From: Candidatus Woesearchaeota archaeon
Lineage (GTDB): Archaea > Nanobdellota > Nanobdellia > Pacearchaeales > GW2011-AR1
DNA: 64,000 nucleotides
Direction: 5' to 3'
Assembly: GCA_964409005.1 (NCBI GenBank)
Contig: CAYPBR010000001.1
Coordinates: 18,383-82,382 of the forward strand
Below are positions 8,683 to 39,074 of this stretch, one piece after another. The notes under the pieces were generated by a model, which saw nothing but the letters and a program-made list of their open reading frames with translations, made no database searches and was not told the origin of the DNA. Position numbers and translations under genes: made by a program. Positions within the stretch are counted from its first letter, which is position 1, and every line of letters begins with the position of its first letter.

Positions 8683-9216
8683 TTGGTTTTCTTGTCTTCT
8701 CTGGCTCGCTTTATCCCTCTGGTTTTCTTTTTCAGTGTGACTCGCTCTTATAGTCTGGTTTTCTTTTTATTATAGGCTCGCTTCCTCCTCTTGGTTTTCT
8801 CATTTTGACTGGCTCGCTTTACCCATCTGGTTTTCTCATCGAATCTGACCCGCTTCTTTTTTCTGGTTTTCTTATTGATCCCGGCTCGCTCTATGCCTCT
8901 GGTTTTCTTCCCCTCAGTGACTCACTCCTTTTTACTGGTTTTCTCATTGACTTCGGCTCGCTCATGCATGCTGGTTTTCTCTCAAAAAATGGCTCGCTTC
9001 TCTTTGCTGGTTTTCTCGTTGAACCCGGCTCGCTCTGTTTGCTTGGTTTTCTCATTTATTTTGACTCGCTCTTTACGCCTGGTTTTCTCATGTACCTTGA
9101 CTCACTCAAATGAATTGGTTTTCTTTCTTTCTTTGGTTCGCTTTACCCATCTGGTTTTCTTCCTTATTCAGGCTTCATTATGCTTATTCAAATATTCTTC
9201 TTTATATGGTTTTCTT
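8683..9216. repeat. tandem array of about 13 imperfect 36-bp direct repeats, iteron-like (candidate replication origin or centromere-like site)
   Basis: Each unit has invariant blocks GCTCGCT and CTGGTTTTCT separated by variable 8-nt and 10-nt spacers. Half-units lie at both ends. The array is intergenic between minus-strand genes. Confidence 0.8.
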
Positions 9217-9914
9217 ATTGATAGCCCTCTTGACAATCTCCATTCCCTTTGAAAATCAATTTCAAACATTTTTACCATATATCTCATTGAAGCATTATGT
9301 CTATGAAGTAAACTTACTCCCCAATCTGCACTTATTAATCTATTTTTATTGTTATCATAAAATCTTCTATAGGGAGAATTCGTTTTAAGAAATGAAGGAG
9401 CTAACACCCCTAAGAGTTTCGATTTTAAAAATGTATCATAAGGTGATCTAAAGCCCGGAGTGAGTTTATCAATAGGTATCAAAGTATCAGTTTTTACCCA
9501 TTCTCCATGATCCCCTTTTTTCTTATCAAACTTATAACCGAAAGTATCTCCGGTTGCTATACCGCTATAAGCCCACATCTTAGATACGGTAGAGCATTTT
9601 TCTATATCTATTCTTGAAAGCAAAACACTACCTAAGGTCGGCCCTATACCAACTTGATCTTTTAACCATTCATTCCATATATTAAACTCCGGCAATGTCG
9701 ATTCAATAAACTTACCCATATCTTTTTCTAATTTTTTAAATCCTTTAAGGTGTAAAAAAAAGATATTTTCTTCACTCTCCATATAATTGCCTGCTCTTAT
9801 TCTACTTTCTAATGAAATACGCATTTTTTGATAATCATAAAACGTATTCACAGCATCTTTCAAAATCTTTTTGTACTTGTCTTCATGCTCGTTACTTTTT
9901 CTTTTGGTTTTCAT
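9168..9914 (-). CDS. helix-hairpin-helix motif protein (248 aa) adjacent to the iteron array
   Basis: 'VGIGPTLGSVLLSRI' fits the HhH consensus (hxxhxGIGxxxAxxIh). No other domain is recognisable. Confidence 0.45.
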   Translation of the reverse strand: MKTKRKSNEHEDKYKKILKDAVNTFYDYQKMRISLESRIRAGNYMESEENIFFLHLKGFKKLEKDMGKFIESTLPEFNIWNEWLKDQVGIGPTLGSVLLSRIDIEKCSTVSKMWAYSGIATGDTFGYKFDKKKGDHGEWVKTDTLIPIDKLTPGFRSPYDTFLKSKLLGVLAPSFLKTNSPYRRFYDNNKNRLISADWGVSLLHRHNASMRYMVKMFEIDFQREWRLSRGLSIRKPYKEEYLNKHNEA

Positions 9915-13792: not shown

Positions 13793-14149
13793 TCAAATTT
13801 CATTATCTGACACTCCTAACCCAAATTCCTTATTTATTTCTTCTTCTTCCGATACACCTATAGTATCATTATTAACTTGATCAATAGCGTGTACTTTACA
13901 TCCTTTATACTTGCCTGCATTTCTAACTTTTTCAATAGCTTCTTGCATAGTTGAAGCTTCAACATCCAATATTTTCTGAATTGTTATTCTATACTTCATT
14001 TTTCTCTCCTTATTATTTATTTCTTTTAATTCTCGCATTGATTTAACTATATAACCTTTACCGTGAACTATTGTCATTGCCGAACACACATCTTCTGCCT
14101 CAATAACAATCTCATCATCTTTAATTACATCAATTAAATAGCATTTCAT
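13793..14149 (-). CDS. hypothetical protein (118 aa)
   Basis: Minus-strand ORF. Confidence 0.45.
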   Translation of the reverse strand: MKCYLIDVIKDDEIVIEAEDVCSAMTIVHGKGYIVKSMRELKEINNKERKMKYRITIQKILDVEASTMQEAIEKVRNAGKYKGCKVHAIDQVNNDTIGVSEEEEINKEFGLGVSDNEI

Positions 14150-14513
14150 TTTTATTCTCCTTACGATTTATAGAATCTTTCATACTAAAACCATTAGGGT
14201 ATCTTTCTTTAAGCTTTTCTATATTATGTTTCATTATGTCATCAAGACTAAATCCCATAATACTCGCCAACGCTGTAAGATACCATAACGCATCACCTAT
14301 CTCTTCCTTAACATTATTTCTATCCAACTTCCAATCATGATAAAGTACATGCTTAAGATGTCCTGCTAACTCACCCACTTCACTTATTATCCCTAAACAA
14401 TAATTCTTAACTTCTTCATTTTTAGTAATAAGATAATTTCGTGTTCGTTCAACAAGTTCCTGATATTCATTATTCTTCACTATTACGCTCCTTATAACTC
14501 TCAAGTGCATCAA
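14130..14513 (-). CDS. mazG: MazG-like nucleoside triphosphate pyrophosphohydrolase
   Basis: 'GIISEVGELAGHL' and 'KEEIGDALWYL' are the EExx(E/D) metal-binding helices of the MazG/HisE all-alpha NTP-PPase fold. Confidence 0.7.
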   Translation of the reverse strand: MMHLRVIRSVIVKNNEYQELVERTRNYLITKNEEVKNYCLGIISEVGELAGHLKHVLYHDWKLDRNNVKEEIGDALWYLTALASIMGFSLDDIMKHNIEKLKERYPNGFSMKDSINRKENKNEMLFN

Positions 14514-18238: not shown

Positions 18239-19020
18239 GGTAAGTCCTCCACTATAACATCTGATTTTAATTTTAAAAGTTCATAATTATCAGTCAAGAG
18301 CGACTTGTTCTCTTCCAAACTAATAATCCATTTTTTATATTTTACATTAAGTGGTTTGTATTTTAATGCTTCGCTTAAATCTTTGCAATTGCTAACAATG
18401 CTTTTAGCTAACTCTTCAGGAAAATAGCGTATACCAGTAATATTATCTTTTTTATCACCACGTATCATTTTGTAAAGAAGTATTCGTTCAGGTGGGTAAC
18501 CATATAAATCTTTTAAATGTTCGTAACTTAAAACTTTATTCTTTTTAAAAACTTCACAATTCTCATTCATTATTTGTAACCAGTCACTATCCTCCGATAC
18601 TAGCATTATTTTATATTTATCTTTATATTTTTCACAATAATAAGCTGCAACATCATCCGCTTCATATCCAGGTACAAATTTCTGTTCAATTCCTAAAAGC
18701 GATAGCAACTCTTTTAAGTACACTATAGCTTTTGTTAAATCGTCAGGTCTTGCTGATCTATTAGCTTTATATGTTTCATTGATTTTCTTTCTAACTAAAG
18801 AATTCCCTTCCCATGCTACAATTAATTTCATTTCTTCATGATCTCTTTTCAATCTTAAAACTAAAGAAAGAAAACCATGATATAAACCTGTTTTAGTACC
18901 GTCTTTACTTCTAAGTTTAGAAAGTCCATAATAGTAATTATAAACTTGATTCATCGCGTCTACAATAATATAACCCTGTACTACACCTTTCTTTTTAACT
19001 TCTTTAGTTAGCGATGTCAT
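18148..19020 (-). CDS. flap endonuclease / 5'-3' exonuclease (FEN, RNase H-like)
   Basis: 'YIIVDAMNQVY' and 'FVPGYEADDVAAYY' are the conserved acidic metal-binding motifs of 5'-3' exonucleases (Pol I N-terminal domain / T4 RNase H / T5 D15). Confidence 0.75.
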   Translation of the reverse strand: MTSLTKEVKKKGVVQGYIIVDAMNQVYNYYYGLSKLRSKDGTKTGLYHGFLSLVLRLKRDHEEMKLIVAWEGNSLVRKKINETYKANRSARPDDLTKAIVYLKELLSLLGIEQKFVPGYEADDVAAYYCEKYKDKYKIMLVSEDSDWLQIMNENCEVFKKNKVLSYEHLKDLYGYPPERILLYKMIRGDKKDNITGIRYFPEELAKSIVSNCKDLSEALKYKPLNVKYKKWIISLEENKSLLTDNYELLKLKSDVIVEDLPCRKKKNISRLKEQLINLQLYKVFSLVKKM

Positions 19021-23479: not shown

Positions 23480-24034
23480 TTAGGCTATTTTATTACTTTT
23501 CTTTAAATTATCTTCCCACCATAAAGGTTGTAAATTACTATAATGAAAACATTTTCTTTGCTCTTTTAATTTAGTCAAATCAAATTCAGAGCATGGTATT
23601 ATATGATCAATATGCCATTCTCCATAATTTTCAAAAGTCATTCCCACTTGAAATTGAGATTCCAAATGAGATAAAAATTCCTCAATACTGCATCCTAATA
23701 GTTTTATTGTAAAAGCTGATTTATTTGTTCCCTTTAATGCTTGCCGTATTCTACTTCTCAAATTATTAATAATACGTCCCTGTAATGTCTGACTATATTG
23801 CTTATTGTTCCGCTTTTTATATTTCTTATATTTTTCAGATTGATAATATCGCTTTCTTATTTTTTTAAATTTTTCAGTTTGAGAATATTCCTTATAATAT
23901 TCATTCATACATTCTTTACACCAATTACAATATCCATCTCTTTGAAATTTATTTTTACTAAACTCTATTAAAGATTTTTCTTTACCGCATCCACTACATC
24001 TTTTTTCTTCTTTTACTATCAGTTTTATTCTCAT
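23480..24034 (-). CDS. HNH endonuclease (paralog of 38550..39074)
   Basis: Zinc-finger 'CSGCGKEK...CNWCKEC'. HNH core 'EWHIDHIIPCSEF' and 'NLQPLWWEDNLKKSNK'. Confidence 0.65.
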   Translation of the reverse strand: MRIKLIVKEEKRCSGCGKEKSLIEFSKNKFQRDGYCNWCKECMNEYYKEYSQTEKFKKIRKRYYQSEKYKKYKKRNNKQYSQTLQGRIINNLRSRIRQALKGTNKSAFTIKLLGCSIEEFLSHLESQFQVGMTFENYGEWHIDHIIPCSEFDLTKLKEQRKCFHYSNLQPLWWEDNLKKSNKIA

Positions 24035-30845: not shown

Positions 30846-33800
30846 TTACAAATTAATATTATTTAGCAAATCTCTCAATTTTCTAAATGGCTTTTTTACC
30901 TTTTCAAAGCCAATTCCAACAAGAATTTTGCCATTACTTAATTTCCCCTGTGCAACATAATAATCATCATTACTAGCTTCATCCAAAACTTTAGCACACA
31001 TCTTATATATATTATGAAATACAACTATTTCAGTTTGATTATTTTCCCAGTCTTTTCCAACAAGAAATATCATTTTCTTATTATTCTTATCAACTATATT
31101 TTTTTTACTTAATATTTTAAAACAATAATATTGATCTCCACTATCTAAATGCTGATTTAATAAAGCTGTTTTTTTATTTTTAATTATATAACTAAGTTTT
31201 TTTATCGTTTCGACAGATTCACTACAAAAAATATTAAACTTACAAACTTCTTTCTCCAATTTCCTTTTCTCTTCCATTGTAAAATCACCTCTATCTTTAT
31301 ATTTATTCCAATGTTTCCATAATTCCTTTCTTACAACCTTCTCATCTTTATTCTTATACTTAGTTTTAACTACCGACCAATTAACCCAAAAATCATGTAG
31401 TGCTTTTCTATTGCCGTTTAAATTATCAAAGGCACCTATATCTATAAGATTTAAAATAGCAGTCTTATTGGATTTCATTTTCAATTCTTTTATACAAAAA
31501 TCAGAAAAAGAAATAAACGGTTTTGCCTTAGATATTTCAAACGGTAACGCACTTCCAACTCCATGTACAATTGACAAAGGTACTCTTATATTTTCACCTT
31601 CCATATAAAATTTATCAGTAGATTTACCTATATCAATTTTATTAAAAACATTAGCATTAGTTTTACGTTTCATAAAATTCATATAAACTTCCAGCTCATT
31701 TCTCTTTTTAAAATCTTGAACTGATTCTTTATTTTCAACAGTATTAAGTAAAGCAGTAAAATAATATTTTGTATAATATTCTCTCATGTATAGTGTCTGC
31801 ATTGCTATGATAGAATACGATACAGAATGACTCCTATTAAAACTATACTCAGCAAAATAAGCTAATTTATCAATCAACTTATCAATTGCTTTATCTTCCA
31901 TTTGAGCATTTTCTCTTGCTCCCTTTCTAAGTTTAGTCATTGTAACAACTAATCTTTTATCCAATTTTTTATTTTCAGTACTTGTTTCCATTAAATATAA
32001 ATCTTTAAAAATCTTTCTTGATTTATCGGCTTCTTCAAGCGTGAAACCACCAAGTTTATGAAGTATCTCTATAAATTGTTCTTGATACGCAATAGTTCCA
32101 TAAGTACTATTAAGAATCTCACCGAAAATTGGCACTTTATAATGTTCGCTAAATTTCTTTCCTAACTGTTTAAGTTTTCTTCTTCTATGTACATATTTCA
32201 TATGCTCATTTGCCTTTACCACTGCAGGTCTATATAGTGCATTTATAACCGCCACATCTTCAAAATTTTCAGGCTGTACTTCTTTTAAAAAACTATTTAT
32301 TCCATAAGCCTCAAATTGAAAAATACCAATACAATCTTCATTGCATAGTACTTCATATAAATGTTTATCATATATATAAGCCGATACATCATTAAGATCA
32401 ATTTGTATACCAAGATCATCTTCAACCATCTGTACAGCATTTTTCAATATACTTACATTTTCAAGTCCTAATATATCAATCTTCAATACTCCAAGTTGTG
32501 TTAATTCTCTAAAATCTTTTCCCTCTTTAAATGCTGTTACTATATCTCCTTTAATTTTAGACACTGGTATATAATCATAAATAGGACTTGGAGTAATAAC
32601 TGTACCTCCAGCATGTCTACTAAATTGTCTTATTCTACCTATTAATCTATCTGCCATTAAAAACATTTCTTTATTCTTTTTAAAATAAGTCTTTTCTTTA
32701 TTTGTCCATTCTTTGTCTTTTATTTGATCTTTAAGATAATAAATAGCACCAACATTATCATTATCTATCTTTTTAATTATAGTTCTAAACTCATCATCTT
32801 TATCTTTTTCTTTTACACGGGCCATATCCCACAATGCACCCTTTGTCCTAAATGTACTAAATGTAATTATATGTGCAACTCGATCTTCGCCATATTTCTG
32901 TTTTAAGTACTCTTCAATTTCAGATTTACGACTACTTTCAAAATCTAAGTCAATATCAGGAGCATCATTTCTATCCTTATTTAAAAATCTTTCAAACAAT
33001 AAATTAAATTTTATAGGATCAACTTTTGTTATTTCCAATAAATAAGAAATAAGCGAGCCAGCCGCACTCCCTCTTCCCGGCCCAACTGCTATATCTTTCT
33101 TATTACAAAAATTAATAATATCATGTACAATCAAAAAATAATCAGCATAATTTTTATCTATAATTACCTTTAATTCTTTTTTAGTTCTTTCAATATAATT
33201 TTCAGGTATTTTCAATCCGTTAAATATTCTTTTTAATCCTTTTTTACACTCTACTTTAAGCATAACATTTGAATTTACTTCATATCCATCTTTATCAATA
33301 AAAGCAGGAAACTTATTTTCTTCATCAGATAAACTAAAATTACATTTGTCAGCAACATCTTTAGTAGTTTTAATTGCATTATCCATTACATGCTTTGCAA
33401 ATCCATATCTTAACTTTTTGTTTACCTCATAATAATATTCAGGTGTATGAAAATATAATTGTCTAGCATCAAATCTAAAAATGCTTTTATCACTTTCTTT
33501 TTTTCTTTGATTAATCATTAATAAATAATCTTGTAATTCAACATCATTCTTTTTTATATAATGACAATCACCAGTAGCTACATAGTCAATTCCATGCTGT
33601 TGACATAAATATTGAATACCTCTTGTTACATCTACTTGATCTTTTATTTCATTAAAATGTAATTCTCCATAAAAATCATCTTTAAATACTTTTTTCCATC
33701 TTAAAAATATTTTTTCTGCTTTTTGCATATTTCCATTTATTAAAGGTTCTGCAATTATACCTCCCATACACGCTGTAAGGCATATTAACCCTTTTGAATG

Positions 33801-34175
33801 TTTTAATACAAAATCTGTTGTAGTTCTTCCCTTATAGTAAAATCCATTCTTAAATGAATCATAATTTATTTTAAGTAAATTTTTATACCCTGTTTTATTC
33901 TTTGCTAAAAGGACTACATGCTTATTAGTTCTTTTTTCCTTCCCTTTTCCATTATCTCTATTGTCATTCAAATAAAATTCACATCCAATAATAGGTTTAA
34001 TTCCATTCTTCTTACAGCTATTTGAAAATCTCAATACACCTGACATGCTACCATGATCTGCTATTGCAATTGCTTTCATCCCGACTTCTTTAGCTTTTTC
34101 CACGTATTCTTCAGGACTCGGAATTCCGTCAAGCAACGAATAATAAGTATGAATATGTAATTGACAAAAATTCAT
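30846..34175 (-). CDS. dnaE: DNA polymerase III alpha subunit (DnaE-type, with N-terminal PHP domain)
   Basis: 'QLHIHTYYSLLDGIPSPEEYVEKAKEVGMKAIAIADHGSMSGV' is the PHP domain. 'GPGRGSAAGSLISYLLEITKVDP' is the Pol III alpha palm. Length 1109 aa. Confidence 0.9.
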   Translation of the reverse strand: MNFCQLHIHTYYSLLDGIPSPEEYVEKAKEVGMKAIAIADHGSMSGVLRFSNSCKKNGIKPIIGCEFYLNDNRDNGKGKEKRTNKHVVLLAKNKTGYKNLLKINYDSFKNGFYYKGRTTTDFVLKHSKGLICLTACMGGIIAEPLINGNMQKAEKIFLRWKKVFKDDFYGELHFNEIKDQVDVTRGIQYLCQQHGIDYVATGDCHYIKKNDVELQDYLLMINQRKKESDKSIFRFDARQLYFHTPEYYYEVNKKLRYGFAKHVMDNAIKTTKDVADKCNFSLSDEENKFPAFIDKDGYEVNSNVMLKVECKKGLKRIFNGLKIPENYIERTKKELKVIIDKNYADYFLIVHDIINFCNKKDIAVGPGRGSAAGSLISYLLEITKVDPIKFNLLFERFLNKDRNDAPDIDLDFESSRKSEIEEYLKQKYGEDRVAHIITFSTFRTKGALWDMARVKEKDKDDEFRTIIKKIDNDNVGAIYYLKDQIKDKEWTNKEKTYFKKNKEMFLMADRLIGRIRQFSRHAGGTVITPSPIYDYIPVSKIKGDIVTAFKEGKDFRELTQLGVLKIDILGLENVSILKNAVQMVEDDLGIQIDLNDVSAYIYDKHLYEVLCNEDCIGIFQFEAYGINSFLKEVQPENFEDVAVINALYRPAVVKANEHMKYVHRRRKLKQLGKKFSEHYKVPIFGEILNSTYGTIAYQEQFIEILHKLGGFTLEEADKSRKIFKDLYLMETSTENKKLDKRLVVTMTKLRKGARENAQMEDKAIDKLIDKLAYFAEYSFNRSHSVSYSIIAMQTLYMREYYTKYYFTALLNTVENKESVQDFKKRNELEVYMNFMKRKTNANVFNKIDIGKSTDKFYMEGENIRVPLSIVHGVGSALPFEISKAKPFISFSDFCIKELKMKSNKTAILNLIDIGAFDNLNGNRKALHDFWVNWSVVKTKYKNKDEKVVRKELWKHWNKYKDRGDFTMEEKRKLEKEVCKFNIFCSESVETIKKLSYIIKNKKTALLNQHLDSGDQYYCFKILSKKNIVDKNNKKMIFLVGKDWENNQTEIVVFHNIYKMCAKVLDEASNDDYYVAQGKLSNGKILVGIGFEKVKKPFRKLRDLLNNINL

Positions 34176-34475
34176 TTACGCTCCCTTCCTTTTTTTTATC
34201 CTGTCCTTTATCTTTTGTGATAACTGTTATATTATTTCTAATATAACCTCATCTGAAAAGTTGTCTGTATACTTCAAGACATCACGCACTATAACTTTTT
34301 GTTTCATATTTATATCTCTTTTATTTAATTTCTCCATAAAACCATGAAAAAACTATACATGGTAATAGATTAAAATAAATCATTTCTTTCTTTTTGTCCA
34401 CAAACACACCCACCCAAAAATCATATAAAGCAAAAAATAATTTAAACCTTTTACTTTTTTTCATTTAGTAATCCT

Positions 34476-35102
34476 TTAAGGTCTTTTTCTTCTATAAAAA
34501 TATTCAGATGGAAGCCAGTAATGAGCCTTCAATCCCTTAACATTCCAAATCAATATCTCCGAATGAAATTCAACATTTACAAATACATCCAAAGGCATAC
34601 TAATTATTGATGTTATTTCAGCTTTACAATCGTCTCTAAAATATTCTGATCGTTTACTAAATACCCTTTGATTTAAGCGAAAACCCATAGGAGCAAATAA
34701 CACTACTGAAACTTTCTCTCCAAACAATTCAAATATCTTTTTAAGAAAAACTTCAGGCATTAATTGCCGACCTTTAATATTATTAAAAGGTGGATTGCAC
34801 ATTACTAATGATGGTTTTTCAACATGGTCATAATCCGGTAAACCAAGAAAATCTTCATGAAGAAATGTATTCAAATTATTTTTTATTTTCTTATCATCAA
34901 TTCCTATAGTATAACAATTCTTAAATGCTTCTGCCAATCTTCCATCGCCGCATCCCACATCAACTATTCTTGGACGTTTACCACTAATATTGTTATACAA
35001 TAATTCAGCTAAAAAGTCACATATTCCGTAAGGAGTTTTAATATCGCATTTCTTCTTGTTTTCATGATAGTTATTTCTCGTTACTGTAAGTGGTGATGCC
35101 AT
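34476..35102 (-). CDS. SAM-dependent methyltransferase with an NPPF motif (gamma-class amino-MTase; DNA N6-adenine MTase candidate)
   Basis: Motif I 'IVDVGCGDGRLAEAF'; motif IV 'LVMCNPPFNN'. Confidence 0.55.
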   Translation of the reverse strand: MASPLTVTRNNYHENKKKCDIKTPYGICDFLAELLYNNISGKRPRIVDVGCGDGRLAEAFKNCYTIGIDDKKIKNNLNTFLHEDFLGLPDYDHVEKPSLVMCNPPFNNIKGRQLMPEVFLKKIFELFGEKVSVVLFAPMGFRLNQRVFSKRSEYFRDDCKAEITSIISMPLDVFVNVEFHSEILIWNVKGLKAHYWLPSEYFYRRKRP

Positions 35103-35103
35103 T

Positions 35104-35358
35104 TTATTTTACCTCACTTTTTTCAAATAATATATAGCCTATATCTTTCAACCATTCTTTTCTGTACTTATAACCATCAGCGTCAATATAATCATAAAAT
35201 TTTTTATCGTTACCAGTTGTAAATTTTACATCTATTGTTTTGCCCATTTTTCTCTGCATACTAATAACAAATCCATAATCCCCTCTTTCATCATGGCCTA
35301 TAAATGATAATTTTAAATAATCCGGCATTTTTTTAAAACATTTTACTGTAGCTTTCAT
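35104..35358 (-). CDS. hypothetical protein (84 aa)
   Basis: Minus-strand ORF. Confidence 0.45.
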   Translation of the reverse strand: MKATVKCFKKMPDYLKLSFIGHDERGDYGFVISMQRKMGKTIDVKFTTGNDKKFYDYIDADGYKYRKEWLKDIGYILFEKSEVK

Positions 35359-35370
35359 TTTTTTATTCCT

Positions 35371-36522
35371 TTATTTTTTTATCTCCTTCCAAGTATCATT
35401 TAATCTTCCCTTTATAATATTAATACTACTTTTATCCTTCTCAATCAATATGCACTTTCTATTGTTTTTCATACAAGCAACTCCAACAGTTCCAGCACCA
35501 GCAAATGGTTCTAATATAGTTTGTTTAGGTATAGTAAACTTTTCCAACAGTATTTCAAATCCTGCTACTGCCTGTTGCCAAGGATGAAGTTCTTTTTCTT
35601 CCTTTAAATCACTTTCAAAAAAATCAACAGTCATAAATCTTTGTTTTTTTATTGGCAATTTTTGAAATATTATAATAGACCTATAAAGTTGATATATATT
35701 TCTCGGAAAAACCCTAGCGTGTTTACCACGTAATTTCATACACATCTGCCAATAATACTCAAGATGTTCTTCCATCCTATTTAACACTTCAGGTAAATAA
35801 TAAACTCCTGTATATGTAATACAAAACCCACTCGGTTTAAGCACTCTATTAGCTACTTCACCTAACTGACTCCATAATGGTAAAAATTTCTTTGGATAAG
35901 GAGGATCAGTTATTATATGATCTATAGAATTAGGCTTTATATTTTCCATACAATAAGAATAAAAGTCACCGTGTATTACAGAAAACAATTCTTCTCCTTT
36001 ATACAAACTACCTTTCCTTTTCATTGCTTTCCTATCTTTTTCAGTCTTTTTCTCTCTTACTTTTTTAATAACTTTTTCTCTTGTAGGTAAATTTCCTTTT
36101 TTTGTTTCCTCATTGATTACTTCCTCTATAGCATCTTCATTATCAGCTAAAGTTTGAGCACGCATTATATCTGTTCTGTTAATACCAGTTTTTTGTAATG
36201 GAGTTAAGATCGTTACACCGGTGGAACGATCTGACTTCTTTTTTCTATATTTACCACTAATCGTTCCTCCGGACGTTCTAGGAACTTCCTTTAATAAATT
36301 TCCCATCTTCGCTTCTGCATACAATACTACTCCACCCATGAATTGAGTCTCTTCTAATTTTTGATCATAGACGCTCTTTGAAAGTCCTAATCTTTTAATT
36401 GCGTCTATTTGAACTTTATGAGATTCAATTCGTCTTTTCGTTATAATTATAAATTGTTTTAACTCATCAATCGTCGCCGGCAAATTCTCTTTTCTCAATA
36501 CTAACGCTTTTGATTTATCCAT
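35371..36522 (-). CDS. beta-class DNA amino-methyltransferase with an N-terminal extension
   Basis: 'DHIITDPPYPKKF' is motif IV; 'ILEPFAGAGTVGVAC' is motif I. Confidence 0.8.
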   Translation of the reverse strand: MDKSKALVLRKENLPATIDELKQFIIITKRRIESHKVQIDAIKRLGLSKSVYDQKLEETQFMGGVVLYAEAKMGNLLKEVPRTSGGTISGKYRKKKSDRSTGVTILTPLQKTGINRTDIMRAQTLADNEDAIEEVINEETKKGNLPTREKVIKKVREKKTEKDRKAMKRKGSLYKGEELFSVIHGDFYSYCMENIKPNSIDHIITDPPYPKKFLPLWSQLGEVANRVLKPSGFCITYTGVYYLPEVLNRMEEHLEYYWQMCMKLRGKHARVFPRNIYQLYRSIIIFQKLPIKKQRFMTVDFFESDLKEEKELHPWQQAVAGFEILLEKFTIPKQTILEPFAGAGTVGVACMKNNRKCILIEKDKSSINIIKGRLNDTWKEIKK

Positions 36523-37075
36523 TTGATTTCCTTTTAACTAATTTTATATCACTCTTTACTTCGTTTCCCCACACATCCCAACCTTTAATTTTCTCTCTTG
36601 CAAATAATTCTATTCTTAATAAATCACCAAACAGTTTTACAATTTTATCTCTAATAATATCTGGTTTGCGACTATGTTCACGAACAGGTGATACTATAAC
36701 TGAACGCACACTATGGGACAATCTTTTTAATGGTTTGCCCTTTGTTGCTAATAAACATATTTCAGCATTACTACGAGTATAATAACCCATTCCTAAAAAA
36801 ACACCCTTACCTGATTTATTCTTTTTAATCCAAGTAAATGCATTTGTTTTATATTCAAATCCCCAACTTTCTATTATTGGAATAGCCCAACTTAATTTAG
36901 GAAATGTAACCCACATAAGCAATACTGAATTCTCATCAGATATATTATTAACAGGTAATTTTTTTAATTCGTCTAATGTCATCGTACTATACTTGTTAAC
37001 AACATATCTACTACTTGATTGACCAAATTTATAATGCCATGGTGGATCAGCATATATTATTTTATATTTCTTCAC
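36515..37075 (-). CDS. MT-A70 / Dam-like N6-adenine DNA methyltransferase
   Basis: 'IIYADPPWHY' is the DPPW catalytic motif of the MT-A70 family. Confidence 0.8.
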   Translation of the reverse strand: MKKYKIIYADPPWHYKFGQSSSRYVVNKYSTMTLDELKKLPVNNISDENSVLLMWVTFPKLSWAIPIIESWGFEYKTNAFTWIKKNKSGKGVFLGMGYYTRSNAEICLLATKGKPLKRLSHSVRSVIVSPVREHSRKPDIIRDKIVKLFGDLLRIELFAREKIKGWDVWGNEVKSDIKLVKRKSNG

Positions 37076-37959
37076 AGGCGTACTTCTTTATTTTCCAACA
37101 TTTCAATAAGTTTATCAACCGTAAAATCTTGCTGTAATGTCGCGCATCGCCCTATGTGCGTAACATTTTTAATACTTGATACTTTAAGTCCCTTTATCAT
37201 TCTTCCAAAAGGAATCTGAATTGTCTTTAACACCTTACAGGAGTAATCTAAATCAACTTTTGGAATGAATACACGTTCGGACTCTACGCAAAACTGTTTT
37301 TCAGCGATCTTTGTAATTCGATAATAAGGTACACTTTTATCACAGTATACAAAATCAACATCTTTCATTTTTTTCGCAAGTGCATTACTCTCGATTATAC
37401 AAATATACATCTGTGCATTTACAACTTTAATAAATTCACCTTCTATTAATGAATCAAATAAAGGCACTGGTAATGTATTTATTAACTGATTGTAAAAATA
37501 CGCTATTTGAATCTGTTTGTGAACAGGATTAATTCCACTTAGCATTCTACTTTTTACATTAATCTTTTTTATATTTAAAAACATTTTTCTTGTTCTAATA
37601 TTAAATCTATTCATTAATTCCCGATATAATTTTACCATATCATATCCCTCAATATCAGTAAAATCATTATCAACGTTCCAATTGTTATCCATATAATCCT
37701 GCTTTAATGCATCACTAACTTTTGTTGTTACTTTATTATCAACAAAAAATCCAATTTTATAAACTCGAGGTTTAAAAAGTTTATAAGATTTTTCATTAAT
37801 AAACTTACTAATAAACTCATCCACTGCTTTTGTTCTTCTTAATATTTTCAAACCAGAATATTCAGCATCTTGTCCTTTACCTCTTGTAATAATACTGAAA
37901 GTTTTAAAATAAAAAGAAATTATTAAACCTGTTATGCCCCCACCTAATATTAAATTCAT
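37072..37959 (-). CDS. Rossmann-fold (GxGxxG) nucleotide-binding protein, possibly FAD/NAD-dependent
   Basis: N-terminal 'LILGGGITGLIISFY' is a dinucleotide-binding motif. Immediately upstream of the tandem methyltransferases. Confidence 0.4.
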   Translation of the reverse strand: MNLILGGGITGLIISFYFKTFSIITRGKGQDAEYSGLKILRRTKAVDEFISKFINEKSYKLFKPRVYKIGFFVDNKVTTKVSDALKQDYMDNNWNVDNDFTDIEGYDMVKLYRELMNRFNIRTRKMFLNIKKINVKSRMLSGINPVHKQIQIAYFYNQLINTLPVPLFDSLIEGEFIKVVNAQMYICIIESNALAKKMKDVDFVYCDKSVPYYRITKIAEKQFCVESERVFIPKVDLDYSCKVLKTIQIPFGRMIKGLKVSSIKNVTHIGRCATLQQDFTVDKLIEMLENKEVRL

Positions 37960-38549: not shown

Positions 38550-39074
38550 TTATTTTGGATTATTATGTATCGTTGTAACTTTTAATATTTTTCCTCTTTC
38601 TTTCAAATTATCTTCCCACCATAAAGGCCAAAGATTATCTAAAGCCCAGCACTTTTTAAATTCAGGATCGTTAACGCTTTTATATGAAAAGCTTGAAATA
38701 GGTTTTCTATGATGAACTTCCCATAATCCATAATTCTCTATTATCATTCCCGGAAGAAATCTTGAAGTTAAAGTTTCTACAAATTCTTCAAACGTATATC
38801 CTAATATTTCACAGTAATGTTGACTAAATTCCTTTTTATCCTTAAGAGATTGAGACATAGCAGTTATCATATTTTTACTCAATTTAAACATAGGATCATT
38901 TTTTCTTCTTTTCCTCATATATCGCTTATAATATTCTTTACCTTTTCCAAATTGATAATATTCATGCATACAATCCCTACACCAAGTACCATATCCATCT
39001 CTTTGAAATTTATTTTTATTAAATTTGTTTATCGGTCTTATCTTACCGCATTTACTACATTTTTTCTTTACCAT
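38550..39074 (-). CDS. HNH endonuclease (paralog of 23480..24034)
   Basis: 'CSKCGK...KNKFQRDGYGTWCRDCMHEYY' and 'EVHHRKPISSF' and 'LWPLWWEDNLKERGK' are shared with the paralog. Confidence 0.65.
   Translation of the reverse strand: MVKKKCSKCGKIRPINKFNKNKFQRDGYGTWCRDCMHEYYQFGKGKEYYKRYMRKRRKNDPMFKLSKNMITAMSQSLKDKKEFSQHYCEILGYTFEEFVETLTSRFLPGMIIENYGLWEVHHRKPISSFSYKSVNDPEFKKCWALDNLWPLWWEDNLKERGKILKVTTIHNNPK

Follow-up and report, generated by a model that had tools for sequence, protein, structure and literature searches.

Stand-alone methyltransferase genes next to a putative FAD-binding protein in a variable slot of a phage replication operon

Genes of the locus and their arrangement in related phages

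We analyzed a stretch of 64,000 nucleotides (in the following called the window), which corresponds to positions 18,383 to 82,382 of the forward strand of contig CAYPBR010000001.1 (GenBank assembly GCA_964409005.1, filed under Candidatus Woesearchaeota archaeon), and concentrated on the region from 34,476 to 37,959, which codes for three methyltransferases and an adjoining protein with a GxGxxG motif, referred to as E. The window has a G+C content of about 30%, and nearly all of its long open reading frames (ORFs) lie on the minus strand. Scanning these ORFs revealed a baseplate J protein, cell-wall hydrolases and a replication block consisting of a DnaB-like helicase, a primase, a DNA polymerase III alpha subunit (PolIIIalpha), RecA, SbcCD-like proteins and a 5'-3' exonuclease, and judged by this gene content, the window is part of a tailed phage. 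A DNA search against GenBank phages returned a single methylase match of 200 bp, to Methylophilales phage Venkman, and otherwise no related phage. For comparison, we used four loci (L001, L002, L004 and L084), whose replication genes are common with the window at 44–75% protein identity. Scans of the region for promoters and terminators stayed at background level, and searches for RNA genes yielded neither a credible Rfam match nor any tRNA. The genome looks lytic apart from an ORF at 9168-9914, which matches a transposase PHROG (phrog_4285, E-value 1.3e-25).

An earlier note on this DNA had described three methyltransferase genes lying back to back, a Rossmann-type protein directly upstream of them, and a fourth methyltransferase of the beta class near the start of the window. 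We recovered the respective ORFs at the same positions, all on the minus strand (Table 1), and the glycine motif of E reads G6-x-G8-x-x-G11. The three methylase genes do stand in tandem, but they are not strictly back to back, as an ORF for 84 amino acids is inserted between the DPPY and NPPF genes, the methylases being named here by their catalytic motifs. The fourth enzyme is of the beta class as described, with the variant DMPY instead of DPPY as motif IV. Within the cluster, the stop codon of the E gene overlaps the start of the MT-A70 gene, and the end of the latter overlaps the start of the DPPY gene.

Table 1. Positions of the genes discussed in the text (numbering of the window)
Feature	Positions	Strand	Remarks
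NPPF methyltransferase, 208 aa	34476..35102	-	compact, gamma-type, predicted HsdM-like catalytic domain, no target-recognition domain
ORF B, 84 aa	35104..35358	-	between DPPY and NPPF genes
DPPY DNA methyltransferase (predicted), 383 aa	35371..36522	-	beta-class, N-terminal extension of about 180 aa
MT-A70 family DPPW methyltransferase, 186 aa	36515..37075	-	GTG start overlaps stop codon of E
E, putative FAD-binding protein, 295 aa	37072..37959	-	phage family without annotation
Protein upstream of E, 180 aa	37972..38514	-	sigma-factor-like by eye
Fourth methyltransferase, 270 aa	380..1192	-	beta-class N6/N4; adjoins probable terminase gene
DNA polymerase III alpha subunit	30846..34175	-	conserved downstream boundary of variable slot
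Divergent thymidylate-synthase homologue, 298 aa	14678..15574	-	Pfam Thymidylat_synt, phrog_160
MazG-type nucleotide pyrophosphohydrolase	14130..14513	-	Pfam MazG, E-value 3.3e-13

Comparison with the related loci suggests that the cluster is the end of a replication-gene operon, in which a conserved E gene is followed by a slot of variable content extending to the PolIIIalpha gene. The window carries the MT-A70 and DPPY methylases, the 84-aa ORF and the NPPF methylase in this slot. Its counterpart in L004 contains a gene for a MazG-like protein of 117 aa and a DPPY methylase with 67% identity to that of the window, and L002 shows E followed by a DPPY methylase before the contig ends. The remaining two loci carry genes of nucleotide metabolism instead. 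L001 has genes for a dCMP deaminase and a ThyA-like protein upstream of E, which is followed by a miniature ThyA homologue (mini-ThyA), a HAD phosphatase, an 88-aa ORF, a thymidylate-kinase-like (Tmk-like) protein, a dUTPase-like protein and PolIIIalpha, with no methylase at all. In L084, a ThyA-like gene precedes E, and the slot comprises a mini-ThyA, a HAD protein, a Tmk-MazG fusion, an NPPF methylase (55% identical to that of the window) and two unknown ORFs. This mosaic content fits an anti-restriction role of the methylases and argues against a fixed pathway. The PolIIIalpha gene is the conserved downstream boundary of the slot, the polymerase of the window being 52% identical to an L001 gene product annotated as PHP/DNA_pol3_alpha. 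The 180-aa protein encoded upstream of E has homologues in L002 and L004, where they immediately precede E, and in L001, where E follows at a distance of 1.2 kb. This 180-aa protein matches only PHROGs of unknown function, and its C-terminus appears by eye to contain a helix-turn-helix. In the 300-nt gap between the NPPF and polymerase genes (34176-34475), we noted by eye two tiny ORFs of about 47 and 26 codons, the first of which looks hydrophobic.

The methyltransferases and their probable role

The sequences of all four genes identify them as methylases, with family scores far beyond chance. In the DPPY enzyme, the DPPY motif at residues 206-209 precedes an FAGAG motif near residue 345, which is the motif order of the beta class, and residues 201-371 match Pfam family N6_N4_Mtase (PF01555) with 45.1 bits (cutoff 26.7; E-value 1.6e-11). 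It also matches phrog_67 (E-value 8e-28), and its nearest solved structures are DpnA and CcrM. The N-terminal stretch of about 180 residues showed no match in Pfam or the PDB; it is part of the full-length homologue in L004 and is also kept in L002. The fourth methylase scores even higher against N6_N4_Mtase (100.8 bits at the same cutoff, E-value 1.4e-28) and phrog_67 (E-value 1.4e-66). Its DMPY motif at residue 39 precedes an AGSG motif near residue 225 of the 270-aa protein, and the nearest solved structures are DpnA, CcrM and RsrI. The MT-A70 enzyme carries its DPPW motif at residues 10-13 and aligns with the complete Pfam model MT-A70 (PF05063; model positions 1-172 of 172, E-value 3.3e-30) as well as with phrog_359, which is annotated as a DNA methyltransferase (E-value 6.5e-79). 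The nearest solved chains carry no other label than "MT-a70 family protein" (4.8e-18); the RNA enzyme METTL3 comes next (1.8e-15).

The NPPF enzyme is the least clear-cut of the four. Its motif I (VDVGCGDG, residues 47-54) is followed by NPPF at residues 103-106 without a recognition domain in between, and its own score against Pfam N6_Mtase (PF02384) of 17.1 bits stays below the cutoff of 20.4, with a similar score for the MTS family. We therefore collected 124 homologues of about 200 aa, one of them identical and the others 39-78% identical to the protein of the window, and found that 20 of 46 members of this family match PF02384 (E-value ≤0.001). The family profile aligned almost over its full length (residues 12-196) with the HsdM-like adenine DNA methyltransferase 7vru (5e-9), covering only the catalytic core of that enzyme (residues 162-384 of the 499-aa chain), and with lower significance with the type I M subunit 5ybb (8.7e-6), whereas TaqI, METTL5 (1.4e-4) and RsmC (8.8e-4) ranked lower still. 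Because the family matches both PF02384 and 7vru, we assigned the protein to the gamma class despite its own sub-threshold score, and the nearly full-length alignment with the HsdM-like core suggests that it is a gamma-type enzyme reduced to the catalytic core. It differs from a true HsdM in that no HsdS is encoded nearby and the N- and C-terminal domains contacting HsdS are missing.

Members of the NPPF family occur frequently in viral contigs (64 IMG/VR loci), and no conserved neighbor, including HsdS, HsdR or any other nuclease, was found in 48 non-redundant viral loci. We also considered the 84-aa ORF as a partner of the enzyme and rejected it, as none of the 64 NPPF-family loci contains a homologue. 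Because neither a conserved neighbor nor a homologue of this ORF accompanies the family, we regard the NPPF gene as standing alone. The 84-aa ORF itself matches neither Pfam nor PHROG families; it is also present in locus L010.

Taken together, the four enzymes resemble the orphan DNA methyltransferases of phages, which are known as beta-class, MT-A70-type and HsdM/TaqI-type enzymes, in their motifs, motif order, matches to family hidden Markov models (HMMs) and stand-alone genes. They depart from them in the NPPF enzyme being a core with neither target-recognition domain nor HsdS partner, the 180-aa N-terminal domain of the DPPY enzyme and the DMPY motif of the fourth. Most probably, their substrate is DNA and their role anti-restriction, and methylation probably occurs at adenine N6 within different short motifs. 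Three stand-alone methyltransferases would then have been acquired independently into the slot and a fourth near the terminase gene, and they would act on the phage's own DNA after replication, blocking cleavage by host restriction enzymes. The proposal of the earlier note that these orphan enzymes confer broad anti-restriction methylation is thus a sensible reading, as most probably they are DNA methyltransferases without restriction-enzyme partners; a multi-step modification, which it offered as well, is not supported as a joint pathway with the Rossmann-type protein (see below). The methylase cluster consists of ordinary phage accessory genes, which are individually exchangeable.

An alternative is that at least one of these enzymes, above all the 208-aa NPPF protein, has RNA or protein as its substrate, as do METTL5, RsmC or HemK, and plays no part in DNA protection. 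The missing recognition domain, the sub-threshold Pfam score and the profile matches to METTL5 and RsmC would agree with this, as would the label "predicted RNA methylase" given to a homologue by one source. However, the best and longest profile matches are those to the HsdM-like and type I M-subunit DNA methylases together with that to TaqI, nearly half of the scored family members match N6_Mtase, the family is widespread in viral contigs, and the other three methylases strongly match DNA-methylase families. We therefore regard this alternative as rather improbable, and the HemK/RsmC-like identity which the earlier note had named as its own refutation is less likely, given that the HsdM-type match outranks METTL5 and this in turn RsmC. 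That the phage carries complete restriction-modification systems, to which the methylases would contribute the modification halves, is hardly credible: the HNH/endonuclease VII-like gene two genes upstream of E (38550-39074) is the sole point in favor, but it matches phage endonuclease VII/HNH PHROGs (phrog_1035), its paralogue at 23480-24034 has no methylase beside it, all ORFs of at least 50 aa between the methylases are accounted for, and the NPPF family lacks any conserved nuclease neighbor.

The two paralogous endonuclease VII/HNH-like genes may code for homing endonucleases. Some six-base palindromes are depleted in the window (AGATCT, 0 observed vs. 6.1 expected; GATATC, 1 vs. 14.4; TGATCA, 15 vs. 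33.3), which hints at host restriction enzymes recognizing these sites, the counts being small. No depletion was found for GATC (ratio 0.94) or GANTC in the window, and these sites gave no pointer to the specificity of the methylases.

Family, fold and genomic neighborhood of protein E

As a single sequence, E did not match any entry in Pfam, PHROGs or the PDB. A word-indexed search yielded 13 close homologues and a metagenome scan two distant loci, and when a profile was run against 1.84 billion cluster representatives, 245 representatives of the family were retrieved (E-value ≤1e-3, clusters at 50% identity), the best 150 of which are nearly all about 300 aa long and match end to end. None of the 50,697 GenBank phage records contains a family member, tblastn searches of GenBank phages with four members remained empty, and no close relatives of the window's E were found in IMG/VR. 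Among 117 members, no named Pfam domain was detected beyond a few weak matches to NAD_binding_8 and Amino_oxidase, and the names attached to the proteins are uninformative.

An AlphaFold2 model of E calculated from 14 close homologues was unusable, with a predicted local distance difference test (pLDDT) score of 55.6, so we used an alignment of 117 sequences instead, which resulted in a model with a pLDDT of 92.7. It contains a beta-alpha-beta unit at residues 2-25 and one dinucleotide-binding domain. A Foldseek search with this model returned the two-domain flavoproteins KMO, TetX, UDP-galactopyranose mutase (UGM), glycine oxidase and amine oxidases (E-value about 5e-9, template modelling (TM) score about 0.55); among viral models, the best matches are uncharacterized phage proteins. 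Conserved positions in the 117 sequences are the GxGxxG motif with G6, G8 and G11 invariant or nearly so, GGQ, LGPR, Y89, T162-I-P, Y205, R214, E226 and G270-R271. The N-terminal part of the family profile resembles amine and protoporphyrinogen oxidases, and profile positions 135-225 alone match eukaryotic UGM (2e-10) over a stretch (YFP..PF.R.T) which includes the near-invariant Y205 and the invariant R214. We conclude that E adopts the fold of a putative flavin adenine dinucleotide (FAD)-binding enzyme and is predicted to be a distant relative of UGM and the amine oxidases.

By its features, E falls into neither UGM nor the amine oxidase family. It shares with UGM (PDB 3uka, 3ute, 4dsg) the two-domain flavoprotein fold with the N-terminal GxGxxG, the motif "...Y.YFP....PF.R.T..." and a C-terminal "GR.A.W". 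However, only 90 residues align, similarity to the whole enzyme is missing, and neither a bacterial UGM nor Pfam GLF is matched. The E family is shorter (about 300 aa) than UGM in general (365-510 aa) and than the matched UGM chains (484-519 aa), the helices in the model of E are all short and form no bundle, and the genomic context of the family is nucleotide metabolism rather than polysaccharide synthesis. Because the helical domain covering the substrate is absent from the model, E falls outside UGM while keeping a UGM-like core. Pfam PF01593, which comprises amine and protoporphyrinogen oxidases, does not match the window's E and matches only 1 of the 117 members (5.7e-4), the proteins of 426-459 aa in this family being remote profile matches at 1e-6 to 1e-12. 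Class A monooxygenases of the KMO, TetX and PHBH type are the top Foldseek matches, but at TM scores of 0.43-0.58 and 8-13% identity; the C-terminal motif of the family reads GR(Y/F)A.W rather than GDAAH. A thioredoxin reductase, as suggested by the length of E, was rejected, because there is no conserved cysteine pair and local matches are weak.

We then analyzed the gene neighborhood in 65 non-redundant E loci, which consist of IMG/VR loci retrieved by sub-family alignments and metagenomic loci, by clustering the neighboring proteins, searching them with HMMs and anchoring them to Pfam. A fusion gene of a dUTPase_2/MazG domain with a HAD/NT5C domain is present in 41 of the 65 loci and mostly overlaps E or follows it within 40 nt. 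Separate MazG and/or NT5C genes occur in another 13, and E itself is fused to a MazG-like domain in five, so that 59 loci contain MazG and/or NT5C. A gene of this type lies within about 2.3 kb of an unfused E in 52 loci. The five fusion genes (L029, 8001-9350; L030, 7998-9305; L031, 7983-9266; L061, 3207-4466; L072, 7983-9224) match the HMM of the partner gene with E-values from 1e-20 to 1e-28, and the C-terminus of the L029 protein matches Pfam dUTPase_2. A thyX gene was found within the fetched flanks of 8 kb in 50 of the 65 loci and directly adjacent in four of the five with fusions. Further neighbors are Tmk-like genes (37 loci), ThyA-superfamily genes (34), PolIIIalpha (31), NAD-dependent epimerases/dehydratases (24) and dCMP deaminases (13). 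The viral loci of the NPPF family served as a control, in which ThyX and MazG-NT5C each turned up in only 1 of 64. In contrast to these nucleotide-related genes, homologues of the MT-A70 and NPPF methylases and of the 84-aa ORF are absent from all 64 other non-redundant E loci, and N6_N4 methylases occur in just three of them, including the two loci most closely related to the window. This shows that E is linked to genes of nucleotide metabolism. Because of the fusions and the near-constant adjacency to a gene resembling deoxynucleoside triphosphate pyrophosphatases, we assume that E probably acts in deoxynucleotide metabolism or base modification and not with the methylases. Two further features of these loci were noted. 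The PolIIIalpha genes of L007 (13190-16939) and L012 (11357-15406) code for 1349-1390 aa, the L007 product combining the Pfam domains UDG (uracil-DNA glycosylase), PHP and DNA_pol3_alpha. In L005 (6083-6781) and L007 (6002-6694), a gene matching Pfam Tad6 (PF25188) precedes E by a few genes and lies within the block for nucleotide metabolism.

Many of the ThyA-superfamily proteins near E are only 160-215 aa long (e.g., L001, 10930-11577; L084, 1790-2353; L026, 11050-11568; and those of about 30 other loci). Their alignment shows that the catalytic Cys and the Arg-Ser pair are kept and that an invariant Asp takes the position of E. coli N177, and a rough pattern match found Asn at the equivalent of D169 in 13 of 38 scored proteins. 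According to a paper of 2026 (PMC13326640), N177D changes the specificity towards dCMP, and D169N marks those 5-hydroxy-dCMP synthases that depend on flavin and O2. The mini-ThyA proteins are much shorter than these characterized enzymes. With an E-value of 1.8e-10, their profile also hits T4 dCMP hydroxymethylase as well as the recent entries 9iqu and 9iqc. The neighborhoods of E contain the same types of genes as the T4 set of dCMP hydroxymethylase, dCTPase and deoxynucleoside monophosphate (dNMP) kinase and the 5-hydroxy-dCMP synthase clusters of RB69 and DLP3 (PMC13326640), namely those for ThyA homologues, MazG/dUTPase-like proteins, HAD phosphatases, dNMP-kinase-like proteins and dCMP deaminases. 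These sets have no counterpart of E as described (PMC13326640), whereas the E loci add ThyX and the unusually small ThyA homologues.

The E family is thus co-located with a gene set for pre-replicative pyrimidine modification, of which the window has only a ThyA-like and MazG pair at a distance from E. The ThyA homologue of this pair is encoded directly upstream of the MazG gene and matches Pfam Thymidylat_synt (2e-9) and phrog_160 (1.9e-13); the HMM of the partner gene matches the MazG protein with its MazG half (1.5e-9). Aligned by BLASTP with E. coli ThyA (E-value 3e-4), the homologue has C146, D169 and N177 conserved and L143 changed to D, which by the criteria of PMC13326640 suggests a predicted dUMP hydroxymethylase. 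In that case, the phage may carry modified thymine, a suggestion derived from one pairwise alignment at an E-value of 3e-4. A ThyA homologue together with MazG is the classic pairing for replacing thymine by 5-hydroxymethyluracil, and a modified base apart from methylation may be present.

Possible functions of protein E and its relation to the methylases

We tentatively propose that E is a flavoenzyme acting on a pyrimidine deoxynucleotide in a MazG-fed pathway, either in the nucleotide pool or in base modification, the chemistry being deduced from fold and context. A more specific version, to which we attach still less confidence, sees E as a new flavoenzyme in the DNA-precursor metabolism of phages, belonging to a widespread set that makes a non-canonical pyrimidine for phage DNA. 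This set would comprise E, MazG/NT5C, ThyX, a dNMP kinase and the miniature ThyA homologues, many of them with the 5-hydroxy-dCMP-synthase signature, and E would catalyze, or make possible, a flavin-dependent reaction of a pyrimidine deoxynucleotide.

Alternatively, E might be a redox helper that draws on NAD(P)H as a flavin reductase or oxidoreductase and maintains the reduced flavin in ThyX or in a flavin-dependent ThyA-like hydroxylase. The frequent presence of ThyX, including its direct adjacency to E in several loci and in most of those with fusions, as well as the fact that part of the ThyA-like proteins bear the signature of 5-hydroxy-dCMP synthases using flavin and O2 speak for such a function. 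ThyX, however, reduces its own FAD with NADPH, and typical flavin reductases have another fold. Moreover, the model of E contains a single dinucleotide-binding domain and no obvious second domain for NAD(P)H, and E is kept in the window and in L004, where we saw neither a thyX nor a mini-ThyA gene. We consider this function unlikely.

Somewhat less likely again is a pyranose-furanose mutase, which E would represent as a minimal UGM providing furanosyl donors for the glycosylation of hydroxylated or hydroxymethylated pyrimidines in phage DNA. The profile match to eukaryotic UGM across the conserved Tyr and Arg, the presence of Trypanosoma cruzi UGM among the top fold matches and the epimerase/dehydratase genes in over a third of the E loci are compatible with this, as is the fact that NT5C-like HAD phosphatases can be sugar-phosphate phosphatases. 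In addition, a phage-encoded UGM has been proposed for DNA glycosylation in Rhizobium phage RL38J1 (PMC13326640). This is countered by the small size of E and the lack of the helical uridine-binding domain in its model, by the missing matches to bacterial UGM structures and Pfam GLF, and by fold scores which are no better than those for hydroxylases. There is also no glycosyltransferase among the conserved neighbors of E and no epimerase in the window, and a dUTPase-like domain as the fusion partner of E speaks for nucleotides more than for sugars.

The remaining alternative builds on the multi-step DNA modification put forward in the earlier note: the flavoprotein would alter a base which the three methylases then decorate, or the reverse. 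The cluster genes are indeed tightly packed, co-oriented and overlapping, and FAD-dependent enzymes acting on modified DNA bases exist. One of these is gp47 of PaMx11, which acts in thymidine hypermodification as an FAD-dependent glycinyl-thymine lyase (PMC8989533). It belongs to the same broad fold class as E, and glycine oxidase is among the fold matches of E. However, gp47 works together with a 5-hydroxymethyl-2'-deoxyuridine (5-hmdU) DNA kinase and aGPT-Pplase (PMC8989533), neither of which was found among about 60 ORFs scanned in the window, and its reported similarity is to MnmC1 (PMC8989533), in contrast to the UGM and amine oxidase signals in the sequence of E. The distribution of the genes also speaks against a common pathway. 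The E family travels with MazG/NT5C, ThyX, Tmk-like and ThyA-like genes, 61 of the 64 other E loci are devoid of any methylase, and the close relatives which have E in common differ in their methylases, with only the DPPY enzyme in L004, only the NPPF enzyme in L084 and none in L001. We therefore judge a joint pathway very improbable. The suggestion that the Rossmann-type protein is a new modification enzyme survives insofar as E is an uncharacterized enzyme of a family without a name, but not in its partnership with the methylases.

In summary, we favor the explanation that the region is the end of a replication operon, that its methylases serve anti-restriction and that E is a flavoenzyme of a nucleotide pathway and not their partner, and regard it as probable on the whole. 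The nucleotide gene set seen in relatives such as L001 and L084 would have been swapped for methylases in the lineage of the window, which would have traded most of this set for post-replicative methylation with E retained, so that the nucleotide gene set and the methylases would represent two alternative routes of DNA protection in one slot. Several points weigh against this explanation. The window covers 64 kb of a contig of apparently 96 kb, as the identical NPPF protein is recorded on a 96-kb metagenomic contig. The assignment of the methylases to DNA is a sequence-based prediction which does not extend to their target motifs; the NPPF protein stays below the Pfam threshold for DNA methylases and also resembles the rRNA methylase METTL5, and the relatives of the MT-A70 enzyme include the RNA enzyme METTL3. 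ThyX, NT5C, Tmk-like, mini-ThyA and epimerase genes were not detected in the 64 kb, and the sole MazG-like gene found there lies 22.5 kb from E. FAD as the cofactor is putative, as the end of strand 2 in the E family mostly reads T/S/G followed by K instead of the acidic residue usual in FAD-binding Rossmann folds. The window's E also departs from the consensus at conserved sites (P37 to L, W275 to L, Y272 to C). Because of these departures and the absence of the usual partners, its role is less certain than that of the family; it could differ from it, or the gene could be decaying.

The methylase cluster alone adds little to what is known, since several orphan methylases are common in phages. 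The slot which holds either a nucleotide gene set or methylases would be a small-scale case from nature in which two anti-restriction strategies take each other's place. The E family, with at least 245 clusters and without a Pfam or PHROG name, is among the most tightly linked genes of a nucleotide-modification neighborhood in uncultivated phages. As thymidylate-synthase homologues have recently been shown to perform flavin-dependent hydroxylation, it is timely to assign the reaction of E, and doing so could bring to light a new base or a new step in the DNA chemistry of viruses.

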